Position numbers and translations under genes: made by a program
From: an uncultured Planctomycetota bacterium
Lineage (GTDB): Bacteria; Planctomycetota; Planctomycetia; Isosphaerales; Isosphaeraceae
NCBI GenBank assembly: GCA_963823665.1
Contig: CAWGMQ010000007.1
Span: forward strand, 896,001 to 960,000
Reading direction: 5' to 3'
DNA: 64,000 nucleotides
The notes under the pieces: generated by a model
Database searches by the model: none
What the model was told of the DNA's origin: nothing
Seen by the model: only the letters and a program-made list of their open reading frames with translations
Part shown: positions 54,011-64,000 of the stretch, piece by piece
Position numbering within the stretch: the stretch's first letter is position 1
Layout of the letters: the number at the start of each line of letters is the position of its first letter

Positions 54011-55225
54011 ATGACGCGGCTGGCGGTCGTGATTGTCGCGATGACACTTCCCGTGTGCGCTTTTACGCAGACGAAGGACTCGTCTCCCGAAGAGCAATAC
54101 GCGACGCTGATGCGCGGGTACCAGGAATCGCTCAAGCGAGCGACCGCGGGAATTCAGGCCGCGAAGTCGAAAGAGGAGCGGCAGAGGGCGGTTGCTACTT
54201 ATCCGACGATCGACCGAATCGGACCGCGGTTCCTGGAACTGGCGAGAAAATACCCGCGTACTTCGGCGGCGTGTGATGCTCTCGTTTGGATCGTCGGGCA
54301 GGGTCGAGTGGGACCGGATTACTTTCCATCGTCGCGAAGCGAGCTGGCCGGCGAGGCCATGGATCGGCTGGTACAAGACCACGTCGAGGAGAGGCGAGTG
54401 GGCGTGCTGTGCCGCTCGCTTGTTGTTTATCCCTCGCCATTGCGCGACACATTTTTGCGCAAGGTTTACGAGAAGGCAACCAACCGCGAAGTGCGGGGCT
54501 ATGCGTGCCTTTCGCTTGCCGAGTATCTCGCCGCGAAGTCCAAGGCGGTGGCGGGGGCCCGGAGCCGCGGTCAGGCCAATCGTCCCGAGAATGTCGATCC
54601 CGCGTTCACCGCATATGCCGAGCACATTCGCACGGCCGACGCCGTGGCGCTCAGTCGCGAAGCGGAGACGCTGTTCGAGAGGACGATCCGCGAATATGGC
54701 GATTTTTCGATCTCGAGAGGCGGTCAGAAAATCACGTTTGCTCAGCTTGCCGAATCAGGTTTGAGGGGACTGCGGCAGATCGGGGTGGGGAAAGCGGCGC
54801 CGGAGATCGAGGGAGAGGATGTCGACGGCAAGCCTCTCCGGTTGAGCGATTACCGGGGGAAGGTCGTGATGCTCGTTATTATGGGAGAGTGGTGCGGGCC
54901 GTGCCGGGCGATGTATCCCCAGGAGCGCGAGCTGGTTTCCCGGCTGATGAACAAGCCCTTCGCGCTTCTGGCCATTGATACCGATACCGACAAGGCAACG
55001 CTGCGGAAGGCGATCTCGGCCGGGGAGGTTACCTGGCGGTGCTGGTGGGACGGCGCGATGGACGGGCCAATCTGCAAGGTGTGGGACATCCGTGGTTTTC
55101 CGACCGTTTATCTCATCGACGCACACGGCATCATCAGGGATTCTATGATGGGAGGTGGCAAAGTGCTCGATGAGTCGGTCGAGAGGCTGCTCAAGGAAAT
55201 GGAGAATTCCTCGACCTCGAAGTAG
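54011..55225 (+). CDS. Secreted TlpA/redoxin-domain thioredoxin-like protein
   Basis: Signal peptide; APEIEGEDVDGKPLRLSDYRGKVV, WCGPC and FPTVYLID. Confidence 0.92.
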   Translation: MTRLAVVIVAMTLPVCAFTQTKDSSPEEQYATLMRGYQESLKRATAGIQAAKSKEERQRAVATYPTIDRIGPRFLELARKYPRTSAACDALVWIVGQGRVGPDYFPSSRSELAGEAMDRLVQDHVEERRVGVLCRSLVVYPSPLRDTFLRKVYEKATNREVRGYACLSLAEYLAAKSKAVAGARSRGQANRPENVDPAFTAYAEHIRTADAVALSREAETLFERTIREYGDFSISRGGQKITFAQLAESGLRGLRQIGVGKAAPEIEGEDVDGKPLRLSDYRGKVVMLVIMGEWCGPCRAMYPQERELVSRLMNKPFALLAIDTDTDKATLRKAISAGEVTWRCWWDGAMDGPICKVWDIRGFPTVYLIDAHGIIRDSMMGGGKVLDESVERLLKEMENSSTSK

Positions 55226-55340
55226 CGGTCATTCCGGTCCCTTTTTCTCAGGGATCTGGTATGTTGGGGGCGGGTCGCGGCCGCGCTCGATGGCGCAGGA
55301 CGCGAGCGGACGGATCGACATCGCGTGCAAGGAGGTCAAC

Positions 55341-58200
55341 ATGCGCATGGCGTCATTTACATCATTGGTTGTCCTGGTGGCGTCGTCGTCGGATCTTCCG
55401 CGATTCGCGGTCAGGCATGCGGCGCTGGAGCAAGCTCGGTCGTCACGGCTTTCGGCTCGCTGGATCGGGCAGGACGGGCATGATTACGTGGGCCCGCATG
55501 AGAGGCTTGCGCCCAGCGATATTCAGGATATTCATATTGCGATTGCGGGACTGGATCCGCGCCGCGAGGTGGTCTTTGTCGAGGTCAGGTCAACCAACGG
55601 GAACTTCTGGCGATTTGCGGAGAAGCCGGAAGGGTATCGGGCCGAATTCAAACGTGCCAAGGGAGCACGGACGGGGGATGTGTTTTTCGAGCCGGCGGCG
55701 GTCGAGACGGGGCGGCCGTTTCATGTGCTGGTTCGCTACGAAGATGGATCGACAGCCGAGGCCGATCTGCCCGGCGGCAAGGCGGATGACAAGCTGCCAG
55801 TGAAGACCGTGGCACTTGCGGCGCGGTGGATCGGCCAGGACCGGCAAGACCGCACCGGAGCGGGGCCGTCGGTGGGCGGCGACGGGTTTCAAGACGTGCG
55901 GATCCATGTCAGCCGGCTTTCGACCAGGTTGACCCTCAAAGGAATCCGGGTTGTGGGGACGAGCGGCGCGACGTGGGAATCGGGGCCGAACCCCAAGCTG
56001 TTGCCGAGCGCCGAGCTGGTGCGCGACGCGAAGGATCCGTCTCAGGGCGACCTGTACTTCCAGCCGAATCGTGACTTGACGGGCCAACGACTGAAGCTGA
56101 CGGCCCTGTACGACAACGACCAGGTCGACACGACCACTGTGAACGCTGGGCGGTGCGATCCCGCGCTGCGGATGCCGCAAGTGGCGCTGCCGAAGTTTTC
56201 GGAAGTGGCGGCGGACGTCCGATGGCTGGGGCAGGATGGCTTGAGCGCGACCGCGCCGGGCGACGTACACCTGGCCATTTCGGGACTGCCGGGTTCGCAG
56301 GGGATCGCCGCCGCGGTTCTGAGCAACTCGCAACGAGGCGTGTGGATCTACCGCAAGAATGACCGCGCCAATGTGGCTGTCGATCCGTCAGCCGAATCGC
56401 TCACGATCAAGGCGAACGCGCAGAGCAGGTCACTCGACGTGTTCTTCCCTCCATATCGGGATGAGAGCAAGGGCACGATGACGCTGCGGTTGATTGCAGC
56501 CGACGGCCGGAGCTCGATCCTCCGGTTCGCCGGAGGCGTCTGCGACCCGGCCAAGCGCTCGGGCGAGCCGGTGCGGGAGAGCGCGACCGCGAAGCCGGGC
56601 GACGACCTTCAAAGCGTGGCCGATCGATTCGGGTCGATGACGCTTGGGGCCGGGACTTACCGGCTGAATAGGCCGCTCGTGCTCAACCGTCCGGTGGCGA
56701 TCGTCGCGGAGAACGGGGCTACGCTCGTCTTCTCACAGCCGGCGAGTGATGCGCCCTGGTCAGCGGCGATCAAGATTCATTGCGGCAACACGACGCTTTC
56801 CGGCTTCAGCGTGCGCATCGAAGGGCCGATCCGATGGAGGAACGACGTCGAGTATGGGCCGGCCTTGATCGGGATGACGGACAATTTCGATCAGGGTCAC
56901 GACGATCCCAAGTTCAACGTCGTCTTCAAGCGTTTAGACCTGGAGATTCCGGCGAGCAGCAAACTCCGCGGGCTGGGTGGACTCGCTCGGGCTCATGAGG
57001 CTGAAACGGGCCAGGAGCGGCGTGATCGAGGGGAACATCCTGCGCGGGGGCATGATCGAGTTTTTCGACGGGCCGTGGCGGATTGTCAGCAATGAATTTC
57101 GGGGCACGCCGCCCGGCAGCTATTCTCACGCGGTTTTCGCCGGTCACGGTGTTCACGACGTGCTCGTGCAGAATAACGTCACCAAGAGCGTGGGGCCCAG
57201 CGGCAAGACGTGGCGGTTTCTGGTCTTGACCTGGTTCGGCGCCGGAGACGTGGTCGAGGGAAACACGATCGAGCAGGTGGGGGCCCGGGATGACGACACG
57301 ATTCCGTGGAGCAATGAGCCGGAGATCATGCTGACGGAAGCCTATCACCTGAAGTACGAGGGTAAGGTCATGGCCCTGTCGACCGACGGACGAGTGCTGC
57401 GAACCGGGCAGCCGCAGGGTGACTGGGTGCGGACGGGTGATGTCGTCTCGCTGTTGAACGGGCCGGCGGCGGGCCAGTGGCGCCAGGTTGTACAGGCGCT
57501 CGAATCGACGGCCTATCTGGTTGATGCCGCGATTCCCGCGGGAACCGAGGTTGTGTCGATTTCGACGGCGTTTGTGGGTGAGACGTTTCAGAAGAACCGG
57601 GTGGATGTGCGGGGCGGCCGGCGGTCGTCGCCTCTTGTTCTCGCGGGCAACAACTTCGGAACGAGGGTTATCAAGAATCACTTCCTGGGAGGGGAGTTTG
57701 CGGTGCGGCTGACTGCCTTTCCCACGGAGTCGCCGGTGATCTGGGGCTGGTCGCACGCGCCGTTCCTGGGGGGTGTGATCGAAGGGAACGTTCTGGAGGA
57801 TGCGGAGAAGGGGGGGCTCGTCGGCGTCGAGCACGACGGGCGTTTCATCAAGACGAACCAGGGGCGGGTTTACATGACGGCCGCGCTCAATGACAACGAA
57901 GTGCGGTGGAGCGAGGGCTTTTTGAGCAGAGCAGCCGGAACGGGCTCGAGAGACACGCCGCCGGGGCTCACGCTGGGGTACGCGCCGTCGCACGACGCCG
58001 GTGAGCTTGTGGTGACGGTGCGCGGCAACCGGCTGGTGGCACCGGCGGGGCGGGAATCGGCGAAGGCGCTGGTGATTCCCGCGGCTGATTACAACGGGGG
58101 GCGGGTGCAAAACCGCAGGCTGCCGCTTTCGGATAACGGTGCGGGTGCGCGCCCGACCTCGCGCGCGGCAAGCACGAAGGCCGGCGCTCGTTCGCGATAA
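55341..58200 (+). CDS. Secreted protein with three N-terminal repeats and a right-handed beta-helix (frameshift near 56965)
   Basis: RW[IL]GQD repeated 3 times; LGAGTYRL..PLVL; IEGN, IVSNEF and VEGNTI beta-helix rungs. Confidence 0.75.
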
Positions 58201-58394: not shown

Positions 58395-58598
58395 ACTTCT
58401 CTGCCGCCAAAACCACGGATTGGCGTCACATCCTTACCACCATTGGGTTTAGGTGTGACGATGGAATAATCGGAACTCCGGGGTTTTTCGCCGTAAATAC
58501 TTGTTCGGCTAACATTTAGGGCGTGACGATCGAATATTCGGAACCGTGCTTTTCTTGGATGTAAAGTCGTGTGGTGACTAATGTTATGGCGTGACGAT
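58395..58598 (+). repeat. Degenerate 68-bp tandem repeat
   Basis: gtgacgat at 58455, 58523 and 58591; ggaataatcggaac and cgaatattcggaac follow the first two. Confidence 0.65.
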
Positions 58599-58681
58599 CG
58601 AGAATTCAAGGCTCTGGCTTCTAAACATCGGCACTGAATCCGACTGCGGGTGAGTCCATTTTTCGGGCTCCGTCCAGACAG

Positions 58682-60969: not shown

Positions 60970-61278
60970 GGGAAGCCAGGGAAGCCAGACATCCACTCTG
61001 GCGAGTGGGTTCCGGAGAAGCCACGCGGGGAAGCCAGACATCCACTCTCTCGAGGGGAAGCCAGGGAAGCCAGACATCCGCTCTGTCGAGGAGTGGGGAA
61101 GCCAGACATCCACTCTGTCGAGGAGGGGAAGCCAGACATCCACTCTGTCGAGGAGTGGGGAAGCCAGGAAGCCAGACATCCACTCTGTCGAGTGGGTTCC
61201 GGAGAAGCCACGCGGGGAAGCCAGACATCGGGAAGCCAGACATCCACTCTCTCGAGTGGGTTCCGGAGAAGCCACGCG
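60970..61278 (+). repeat. Nested tandem array of gggaagccagacatccactct units
   Basis: 7 full cores (60979, 61028, 61064, 61096, 61126, 61167, 61230) and 4 truncated starts (60970, 61055, 61158, 61215). Confidence 0.95.
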
Positions 61279-61545
61279 AAGGTGGCTCGCACCGGTTCGC
61301 GTGCCGCGAATGCTGGGTGCCTCGCGGCCGATGCGACGCACAGCAGATACTATACCACGCGCGGTAAGCAACCGGGTGCGCTCTGGTGCCTCGCCGGCGC
61401 TCGCACGCATCGGTTGCTGGGAACCGTTAGAGATGGACGGCGGTGCTTTGTCGCGCCGGCGAAACGGAACGACGCTTGCCGGCCTTGAATCCAATCGAAT
61501 TCCGCACCTACCGCTACCACCAAGGCTCACAAGCGAGCCGCTTAC

Positions 61546-62270
61546 TTACAGAAACGCGACCTGCGCGGCCGCCTTGCCCTGAAACCAGCACCGTGAACAA
61601 CGCGGTGCGGCACGCACAAGCGAGCTCGCTCGACCTGCCGCTTGCTTGAACATGCGACCGAAGTCGCGCACCGTGTCCACCCAATTCGTTCGATCCACTC
61701 CCAGCCGGTCCAGGATGGGAGCCAGGTCTTCCGGGATTGCCCCACGCTTGTCCCGCCCCCCCGGCCCGTCCAATCGAGCAGCATGACGTACTTTCTGGTC
61801 TCGATCGGCAGAAATCCTTGATCCGACGCCGGCGCAGGGAGCGGCCGTTTTGACGCCGCCTGGAGCGGCACGGCCGAGACCGTGGCTGAGGAGCCAGCGT
61901 CGGCCATCAGCATCGCCAGGTCGTTGTCGTCGGGCTCCGCCGGCTCGCCCGTAACATCGTCGCGTTGCGGAAAGAGCTTGTGCCAGCGCAGAGCGACTTC
62001 GGTGTCGGACCACAGTTCGACGCGGTCGGGTCGATTGCGGAGCACAAGATGCAGATGGTTGCTCATAATGGCGTAACTACACACATCAATTCCGAAGAGT
62101 CCGGCGAGGTGGCGTAGGCGATCGATAATCCACGCCTTACGGTGAGAGTAATCACGACCGGAGTAGGAGTCGGTGCCGCGAAGGAAGGCTCTGCGGACGC
62201 ACCGAGCAATGCAGTCATACACACCGACGAACGCCTCTTGCACGATGTGGCGGCGTGCAGAGGCAGGCAC
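61546..62270 (-). pseudogene. Y1 HUH transposase (RAYT / IS200-like), internally deleted and frameshifted
   Basis: CIARCVRRAFL, YAIMSNHLHLVL (HUH) and YVMLLDWTGR...KRGAIP are present. The central FWxxRF / YVDLNP catalytic-Tyr block is missing. Confidence 0.85.
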
Positions 62271-62513
62271 GTAAGGCTCCATTACCATGCAGGTGCAGCA
62301 CGTTAGCGAGAGTATTCATAAGGTCAGTAATGGACAAAATAGCAACAGTGGCGCGGGTGTCAAGAGTCTTGAGAAAAAATTTGACAGACAGCGAAGAGGG
62401 TTCGCTCGGAGCGACCAAGACTTGCGACGACCGCCGCCACGGCTGCGCGGGGACGACCCTGGCGCGACATCTGGATGAGGGATGCCATCTTCACATCAGA
62501 TAGGTGGGTGTCT

Positions 62514-64000
62514 TTGCGTCAGGAAAAGCTCGAGAAAGGAGGAAGTGCCTCGAAACACAGAAACCTTTCATCGCGACCCTGCGGGTTAACGAATCCCGCC
62601 CGGCAGAGCCTGGCCGGCAGCCGGAAGCAAGTCTTGCGTGGGGAGGGGTGACCCTCACTGCGAAGCGTAGACAGCGAGTCTCCATGCCATGCTATCGAGC
62701 CCCGAAATACTCATCGTGGGAGCCTCCGTTGTAGACACAAGCGGGGGCCGTGTCGACACGCCGCAATGGCCTGGCGTGTTCGGTCCTGCCGGGGTCCAAG
62801 AACATGGCGCAGGGACGCGAGGGTTGCTCGGGAACCTGAGAGCCCCATCCGTCTCCACTGACATTTCCGGCTCGGGATCCGGAATACCAACTCCCCGGCC
62901 CACGACCTCGCGTCGGGTCGCTGGGAGCGAACAGGACGCAAGGGTGGTATCGCCACACGAAGGCAACGAAGTGCGGCGAAAGGGGCGGATGGGAGTCGGA
63001 GCGTCTCGTAGTACCGTTGAAGCCGGGGAACCACTCCGAGGGACCCGGTGGAGGGAAGGAGACGCCATGTCACACAACCGTTGGAGGGAAACATGGCGGG
63101 TGCATCGGAACCCGTGGACGTGTCCACGAAACAACAACGGATAGCGGAACTCGCTCGGCGAAGCCCGGAGATGGGATTCACATCCCTGGGGCACTTCATC
63201 GACCTCGATTGGCTGCTCACAGCTTACTACCGGACCCGCCAAGACGGGGCGGTGGGCGTAGACGGACAAGATGGCGAGGCCTACGCAGCGAACCTGGTCC
63301 CGAACCTACGGTCGCTGCTGGAACGAGCCAAGTCCGGTACGTACCACGCACCGCCTGTGCGGCGAGTGCATATCCCCAAGGCAGGCTCAGCGACCGAAAC
63401 CCGGCCACTGGGAATCCCGACCTTCGAGGATAAAGTGCTCCAGCGTGCTGTCGTGATGGTTCTGGAGGCGATATACGAGCAGGACTTCAAGAACTGCTCG
63501 CATGGCTTCCGGCCCGAGCGATCGGCACACACTGCGTTAGAGAGCCTGTGGCAACAGACGATGAACATGAAGGGCGGATGGGTAGTGGATGTGGACATTC
63601 GTAAGTTCTTTGACACGATTGACCACGGCCATCTACGCGACTTCCTCAAGCGTCGGGTGCGAGACGGAGTGCTGCTCCGGCTCATCGGCAAATGGCTCAA
63701 TGCGGGCGTCTTCGAGAACGGGTGCGTTACGCACCCCGAAATGGGGTCGCCACAAGGGGGTGTGATCAGCCCGATCCTTTCGAATATCTTCCTGCACTAC
63801 GTGCTGGACGAGTGGTTCGAGCGGGAGGTTCAGCCTCGGATGATGGGCAGATCGTTCTTGATCCGCTATGCGGACGACTTCGTCATGGTCTTCTCATGCG
63901 AGTCCGACGCACGGCGTGTGATGAATGTGTTGCCCAAACGCTTTGAGAAGTACGGCTTGACCATCCACCCGGACAAGACGCGGCTGGTGCCGTTCGAGCG
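62514..64000 (+). mobile_element. Group II intron (probably bacterial class D); runs off window end
   Basis: 5' TTGCG at 62514. Loop AGACAC (62733-62738) in the stem gcctccgtt/agcgggggc is complementary to exon GTGTCT (62508-62513). Conserved gcgaagcgtagacag block; RT ORF downstream. Confidence 0.88.
63093..64000 (+). CDS. ltrA: Group II intron reverse transcriptase/maturase (partial)
   Basis: Not in the ORF track. Manual translation gives [63 protein letters not shown] and IRYADDF. Confidence 0.97.

Follow-up and report, generated by a model that had tools for sequence, protein, structure and literature searches.

A group II intron at the right edge of the window (the whole 64,000-nucleotide stretch of DNA analysed here, G000:C7:896001-960000 of a 16.5 Mb planctomycete genome in 12 contigs) occupies one fixed base in the terminal repeat that bounds both a TnpA-Y1 subclass 2.3 element and a 150-bp MITE, and on sequence grounds it likely spreads by retrohoming into that repeat. 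The boundaries of the intron are sharp, all 21 of its copies in the genome share one site, the two strands are used unequally, and young introns are found in older MITEs. A sequence-only reading of the window had proposed an intron whose EBS1, AGACAC, targets a multicopy HUH end motif, and in this central point it is upheld. The features in the window, by position and strand, are as follows.

60979..61278, minus strand: tandem duplications of the HUH element's left end, with six copies of TGGATGTCTGGCTTCC, all empty
61230..61247, minus strand: innermost of the HUH element's left terminal motifs, where homology to sister elements begins
61542..62288, minus strand: broken TnpA-Y1 subclass 2.3 transposase gene; NHLH kept, YVDLNP tyrosine motif lost
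62501..62507, plus strand: IBS2 candidate (-13 to -7), partially paired in the window copy and without covariation in relatives
62508..62513, plus strand: IBS1 GTGTCT, within the right terminal motif of the HUH element
62514..64000, plus strand: 5' part of the group II intron, the rest lying beyond the window
62590..62804, plus strand: match to Rfam RF02005, group-II-D1D4-6 (domain I), 138 bits
62711..62717, plus strand: EBS2 candidate TCATCGT, weakly supported
62733..62738, plus strand: EBS1 AGACAC, pairing 6/6 with GTGTCT
62797, plus strand: EBS3 (C), pairing with the G at +1 of the 3' exon
63093..64000 (part in window), plus strand: intron-encoded RT/maturase with YADD and without an HNH domain

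The 5' exon ends in GTGGGTGTCT (62504-62513) and the intron begins with TTGCG at 62514, just as first read. The intron is 2,011 nt long, and its end, CCCGGC, lies at G000:C7:960524, 524 nt past the window edge. The 3' exon had been predicted to resume the motif with ggctt; the sequence beyond the window reads GCCTTCCC, which finishes the terminal motif GRTGGGTGTCT|GNNWYCCC of the HUH element. The prediction thus holds in substance, with gcctt in place of ggctt; to the array's GGCTTCCC the 3' exon matches at 7/8. At the same junction, intron-free sister elements have GTGGGTGTCT followed by GCCATCCC, GCCTCCC or GCGTCCC, and the boundary cannot slide, as T/C and T/G differ on the two sides. The loop proposed as EBS1 is likewise confirmed, as folding puts AGACAC in the apical loop of a hairpin in domain I, inside the RF02005 match. 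A DV catalytic hairpin and a DVI with a bulged A are also present, the fold leaving an A unpaired seven nucleotides from the end. The termini, TTGCG...GC, depart from the GUGYG...AY of group IIB introns.

The host element can be assigned from its intact sister copies, which encode a 408-aa protein with NHLH (HuH) and YVDLNP; Table 1 of PMC6006769 gives the latter as the signature of subclass 2.3. By its HuH motif, YVDLNP, long protein and multicopy state, the element is a member of TnpA-Y1 subclass 2.3, with 67 matching segments across the genome. Against a profile library the transposase has a weak match below cut-off (NF047646, E 3e-8), and neither Pfam nor a PDB sequence search gave a match. 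In the window copy of the gene, about 485 nt are deleted near 61896, including the YVDLNP seen in intact copies.

Both ends of the element carry the same motif, inverted (AGACAYCCAC inward) and often tandemly duplicated. The motif had initially been called REP-like; it is the multicopy end motif of an HUH element as claimed, but the REP/RAYT comparison (a palindromic REP with a GTAG foot) was rejected, as the ends are single non-palindromic motifs that are mutually inverted. It is instead a terminal inverted repeat of the kind that flanks TIRtrons (PMC3733652). Like a TIRtron, the window element has a Y1 gene flanked by terminal inverted repeats; it has neither the GGGGWSAS consensus nor a subclass 2.1 protein with an HTH tail.

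The reported 9/10 match of the exon end to the array core is borne out by six such copies (GTGGATGTCT) on the minus strand of the array at 60987-61247, alongside a single exact GTGGGTGTCT in the window. Within the window the excess of the motif is modest: 8 copies with at most one mismatch, against 3.06 expected, a count reached by 1 of 100 shuffles. Across the genome it is far beyond chance, with 220 copies of GRTGGRTGTCY against 15 of the reversed control and 110 empty sites (TGGRTGTCYGVNDYCC) against 1 control. At least 40 MITEs are present (40 of 98 candidates scored). In a genome of the same genus (84% complete), 89 empty motifs were counted and the junction of this intron was not found; the repeat is therefore independent of the intron.

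The 5' end of the intron is found at 21 places, comprising 6 ORF-bearing copies, 14 ORF-less copies of some 732 nt, one of which contains an inner intron, and 1 stub. When the insertion sites of all copies are compared, 21/21 lie after TGGGTGTCY, the 5' stub likewise following TGGGTGTCT, and of the 20 complete copies 18 have G at +1 and the other 2 have A. Sorted by flank, 14/21 are in the MITE, 3 are at ends continuous with transposase-element sequence and 4 are at other copies of the motif. The ORF is intact in 2/6 ORF-bearing copies, at C6:911026 and in the outer intron at C6:1319464, and frameshifted in 4/6, the window copy included, either by decay or by long-read error. A second intron family, family B, has 10 copies, of which 6 lie after CAGACA, that is, in the same motif on the opposite strand and five bases away; EBS1 is TGTCTG in the three family B copies, out of four, whose loop could be located. 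Family B has no strand bias (5/10).

It might be supposed that few insertions took place and that the copies were then carried by the HUH transposase, with MITE and intron moving as a unit, or by recombination. Copies do cluster in element-rich regions, a MITE family with an apparent 8-nt intron scar did spread (at least four copies), and the family B remnants are without strand bias. However, in six MITE-borne copies the introns are 0.986-1.000 alike and the MITEs around them 0.73-0.93, introns occupy both MITE ends as well as transposase-element ends, and their 3' exons differ. Introns more alike than their host MITEs point to homing, and this contrast largely refutes hitch-hiking with the MITE; carriage as the source of the copies is highly improbable.

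The scar-bearing family is small, with members at G000:C3:130168, C3:131450, C3:198247 and C3:200624 that contain GGGTGTCT-TTGCGTCA-CCCATC, and it looks like an 8-nt scar of this intron, fixed in a MITE that then spread. Of five extra junction-like matches, the four inspected were rejected as intron copies, being a MITE with an 8-nt stretch that resembles the intron.

Several copies have a composite structure. The ORF-less copies (for example L062:5453-6184) look chimeric: their first ~440 nt match the full intron, whereas the sequence after that resembles family B. A 2,420-nt HNH-bearing group II intron (TCGCG...CCCGGC) at L065:6444-8863 (G000:C6:1321443-1323862) recurs at six other places. 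Its seven identical copies occupy the DV/DVI junction in 4/6 full copies, in one copy without an ORF and in two members of family B. All 13 plain ORF-less copies are without it, and the two examined have TCAGTGGGAG rather than TCTGTGGGAG at its site. In L071 and L073, ORF-less outer introns with an inner intron, the 33 nt past the inner intron are the full intron's DVI, unlike the uninterrupted ORF-less copies, and this identity suggests recombination or co-conversion between twintrons. At L078:6091-6344, 182 nt from the 3' part of the HNH intron run directly into a duplicated HUH end, hinting that HUH ends may join unrelated DNA.

Of 10 regions, 9 have the intron on the strand that is locally G-rich; the remaining one (C3:130 kb) is ambiguous, and several of the skews are weak. 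A sign test at the level of regions gives p 0.02 (two-sided). In ten fetched stretches with an assigned strand, 20/30 sites with a perfect IBS1 are filled on the G-rich strand and 0/35 on the other; these stretches were chosen around introns and the sites are clustered, so that a site-level Fisher p overstates the bias and the sign test is the fair figure. In general, G-rich sequence is leading-strand sequence, a rule applied here to an assembly of 12 contigs without an origin. The bias matches that reported for RmInt1 and RmInt2 (PMC4615759).

In the proposed mechanism, a spliced RNA-protein particle would recognise its target by pairing of EBS1 (AGACAC) with GTGTCT and of EBS3 (C) with the G that follows. 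At a replication fork, the intron would then reverse splice into the lagging-strand template where this is single-stranded, and the nascent lagging strand would act as primer, as for RmInt1 and RmInt2. The two ends of each element are inverted, so that one of them would always be on the usable strand. The 14 ORF-less copies have the same guides, and the protein encoded by the intact copies likely mobilises them in trans. As the site is non-coding, the host gene set would be spared; the element would likely bear the cost, since the insertion interrupts its end 8-9 nt short of the tip.

The strand and the base at -6 bear on the suggestion that amplified arrays supply landing sites. As a landing pad the window array was rejected: all six of its copies are empty. 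They have A at -6, which mismatches EBS1, and their strand is the disfavoured one; strand and mismatch together would explain why the array is empty. Genome-wide, A at -6 is found in 0/21 filled sites and 17/100 listed empty sites (Fisher p 0.04, the sites not being independent). The suggestion survives elsewhere, at two loci (L066, L068) where adjacent duplicated ends hold two introns.

The HUH transposase may itself aid homing, by binding and nicking the tip 8-9 nt past the insertion and so giving single-stranded DNA or the primer that an intron without endonuclease lacks. Such a role fits the convergence of two intron families, and of several relatives, on the ends of HUH elements. Y1 transposases cut the exposed lagging-template strand. 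The strand cut by Y1 is, however, the strand into which the intron inserts and not the primer strand, and fork priming alone explains the strand bias. Further points in favour are that the tip, at +8/+9, lies near the +9/+10 cut of the En domain (PMC4424553) and that a relaxase stimulates Ll.LtrB retrotransposition (cited in PMC7306698). On balance, help from the transposase is quite unlikely, and homing by fork priming is preferred.

The guides were compared across 59 introns, consisting of the window intron, 2 of family B and 56/80 relatives with both boundaries and enough flank (24 dropped). EBS3 pairs with exon position +1 in 53/59, against 30.1 +/- 2.4 in 300 shuffles (maximum 39), and the mean best EBS1 score is 4.91, against 3.70 +/- 0.08 when shuffled, with 9 rows lacking a located loop scored 0 in both. 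A metagenome set (51/79 loci) agrees, as EBS3 pairs in 32/38 and EBS1 reaches at least 5.5 of 6 in 26/36. EBS1/IBS1 and EBS3/IBS3 are thus complementary and covary. For EBS2 the 59 introns give no covariation signal (3.50 against 3.47), the EBS2-IBS2 pairing being plausible within its own genome and without signal among relatives. Without EBS2, the 7 nt read by EBS1 and EBS3 cannot alone explain a shared target of 9-12 nt, and the remainder is assumed to reflect protein contacts or selection. Four RNA runs (X6, X7, X8, X11) cover only the interior of related introns, and no exon joint is seen in them.

These data bear on another alternative, in which specificity is limited to EBS1 and EBS3, insertion is wide, and copies survive only in non-coding repeats through selection and abundance, not specialisation. 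It is consistent with the unsupported EBS2, with in vitro splicing of IIE introns without need for EBS2 (PMC3753933), and with the many unrelated targets of relatives (40/58 and 49/51 miss the TIR pattern described below). Against it, TGG upstream of IBS1, beyond the reach of EBS1, is common to 21/21 copies; no copy was found at another GTGTCT|G, a 7-mer expected to be common in the intergenic DNA of 16 Mb; and local filling is 20/30 on the usable strand. This alternative is quite unlikely.

The first and penultimate bases are T..G in 45 and G..A in 14 of the 59 introns, with no mixed case, although kin are not independent; the metagenome rows with both ends give T..G in 34 and G..A in 5 of 39. 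PMC4238363 cites a non-Watson-Crick contact of the first with the penultimate position, and on the tree the swap may represent very few events.

The intron-encoded protein is 419 aa in the window, with a frameshift near the C-terminus, and 450 aa in the two intact copies. It is encoded in DIV, scores 330 bits against TIGR04416 (cut-off 300) and has YADD; a search for an HNH domain found none. Kinship with class D introns such as RmInt1, which the first reading cited as a precedent, is not sustained. The class references, taken from the supplementary tables of PMC3552965, covered three class D introns other than RmInt1, one g3/F intron, one g1 intron and the A. marina pREB3 intron. Identity to three class D references (Toro Table S1) is 31.5-38.4%, and on a quick tree class D forms a separate 100% branch. 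Ni.ha.I1 (g3/F) and Sr.me.I2 (g1), at 34.7% and 32.5%, fall on another branch, and class F / g3 and g1 were rejected along with class D. The protein is 44.4% identical over 426 aa to that of the A. marina pREB3 intron, labelled E in the supplement of PMC8919778, and groups with it at SH-aLRT 99 (quick tree, long branch). Grouped with this one class E reference and without an En domain, the intron is best described as class E-like.

Relatives in other genomes use the terminal-repeat target to varying degrees. In a genome of the same family, a sister intron whose EBS1 is identical is inserted at TGGGTGTCT|GAGATCCCC; among 60 relatives, 1 has such an intron at this site. Compared with the reverse complement of the TIRtron motif, 18/58 relatives' sites fit with one variant allowed (12 genomes) and 13/58 fit strictly, sitting exactly in GGGGWSAS, the motif of the inverted repeats that flank TIRtrons/TIRYT, subclass 2.1 (PMC3733652); among metagenome relatives the fit is 2/51. 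A Y1_Tnp gene lies alongside five relatives, with an inverted partner across the gene in L131 and L146 and none found in L118, L130 and L157. In L118, Y1_Tnp is combined with Bac_DnaA_C, as in a subclass 2.1 protein with an HTH tail and unlike the window element. The four nearest relatives on the tree are at GACA|C sites, from which it appears that the target is shifted in register within a similar TCTGAC core. The narrow target pattern occurs in 8 and 2 copies in two of five relatives' genomes and in none in the other three. Specialisation of the whole clade on TIRs is not supported, since 40/58 and 49/51 are off the pattern (A7G runs, unrelated sites), although some resemble it or have no 3' flank.

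Tentatively, and with rather more doubt than confidence, this planctomycete-centred class E branch (U1/G(n-1)) may be seen as a hyperparasite of HUH-Y1 elements. EBS1 and EBS3 would have been re-aimed repeatedly at subclass 2.1/2.3 terminal repeats, on either strand and in shifted register, with MITE spread and end duplication renewing the targets while insertions disable ends, in a predator-prey relation.

Two further habits occur among the relatives. In L137, L139, L142, L143, L145, L315, L317 and L325, a sub-branch is inserted right after an A6-7G run and has EBS1 CTTTTT, a target reminiscent of IS frameshift motifs. L153, L287 and L345 contain head-to-tail tandem introns, the end of one directly abutting the start of the next, and such tandems have been reported for RmInt2.

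RmInt2 of S. meliloti GR4 (PMC4615759) is, like the present intron, an endonuclease-less IIB intron with all copies in mobile-element inverted repeats, two sites per element of which one is on the lagging-template strand, and relaxed EBS2 pairing. However, RmInt2 is a class D intron in ISRm17, and here a class E-like intron is found at the ends of a TnpA-Y1 subclass 2.3 element, mostly in its MITE, with U1...G(n-1) termini and more ORF-less than full copies; mobility has been shown for RmInt2 and is inferred here. TeI3/TeI4 of Thermosynechococcus elongatus (PMC2882425) likewise have ORF-less copies moved in trans, EBS divergence and twintrons, and family F4 uses a conserved site in ISEL1, an IS200-family element. 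En cleavage and heat-assisted strand opening are discussed for that system, and the available text does not put the ISEL1 site in a terminal repeat, whereas here there is no En and one shared terminal target. Class E (IIE) introns (PMC3753933) share the RT-maturase without En, the EBS1-centred recognition and the weak EBS2, but not the non-canonical TTGCG start and GC end, and the target habit is not described in the available text. Class C introns, which insert at terminators and at attC sites (PMC4424553), resemble the present case in using a dispersed non-coding repeat and lagging-strand priming; they read a DNA hairpin with a short EBS1, whereas here a 6-nt EBS1 and EBS3 are reprogrammed in step with the repeat.

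The host element agrees with subclass 2.3 (PMC6006769) in YVDLNP, a long protein, multicopy state and the lack of REP hairpins, its protein being 408 aa against a subclass median of 325 aa. The available portions of PMC6006769 and PMC3733652 describe no end repeats, MITEs or end duplications of subclass 2.3, nor introns in them, and the part of PMC5581495 at hand contains nothing on the host element. In open-access PMC/bioRxiv, with few subscription papers, group II introns in TIRtron or subclass 2.3 ends or MITEs were not found. Introns hiding in mobile elements are a general trend (PMC7306698), and the principle, introns in IS repeats with ORF-less satellites, is already published; what appears new, in that it was not found in the literature, is the presence of class E introns in non-coding Y1 2.1/2.3 ends and MITEs. 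An endonuclease-less intron can, it would seem, reach high copy number while sparing genes by way of a non-coding repeat that is renewable and has two ends. A genome with both filled and empty sites offers a natural read-out of homing rules (strand, the -6 mismatch), the insertion sites mark ends and MITEs of TnpA-Y1 subclass 2.3 elements that are otherwise undescribed in the available sources, and the U1/G(n-1) swap constitutes a natural test of the contact between first and penultimate nucleotides.

Two minor observations concern the rest of the window. At 58448-58607, a 24-nt repeat (GYGTGACGAT core) occurs three times at an exact spacing of 68 nt, in non-coding DNA that is AT-richer. At 56926-57000, the ORFs 55155-57095 and 56977-58200 overlap in different frames, as if they were one gene with a frameshift or an assembly indel.
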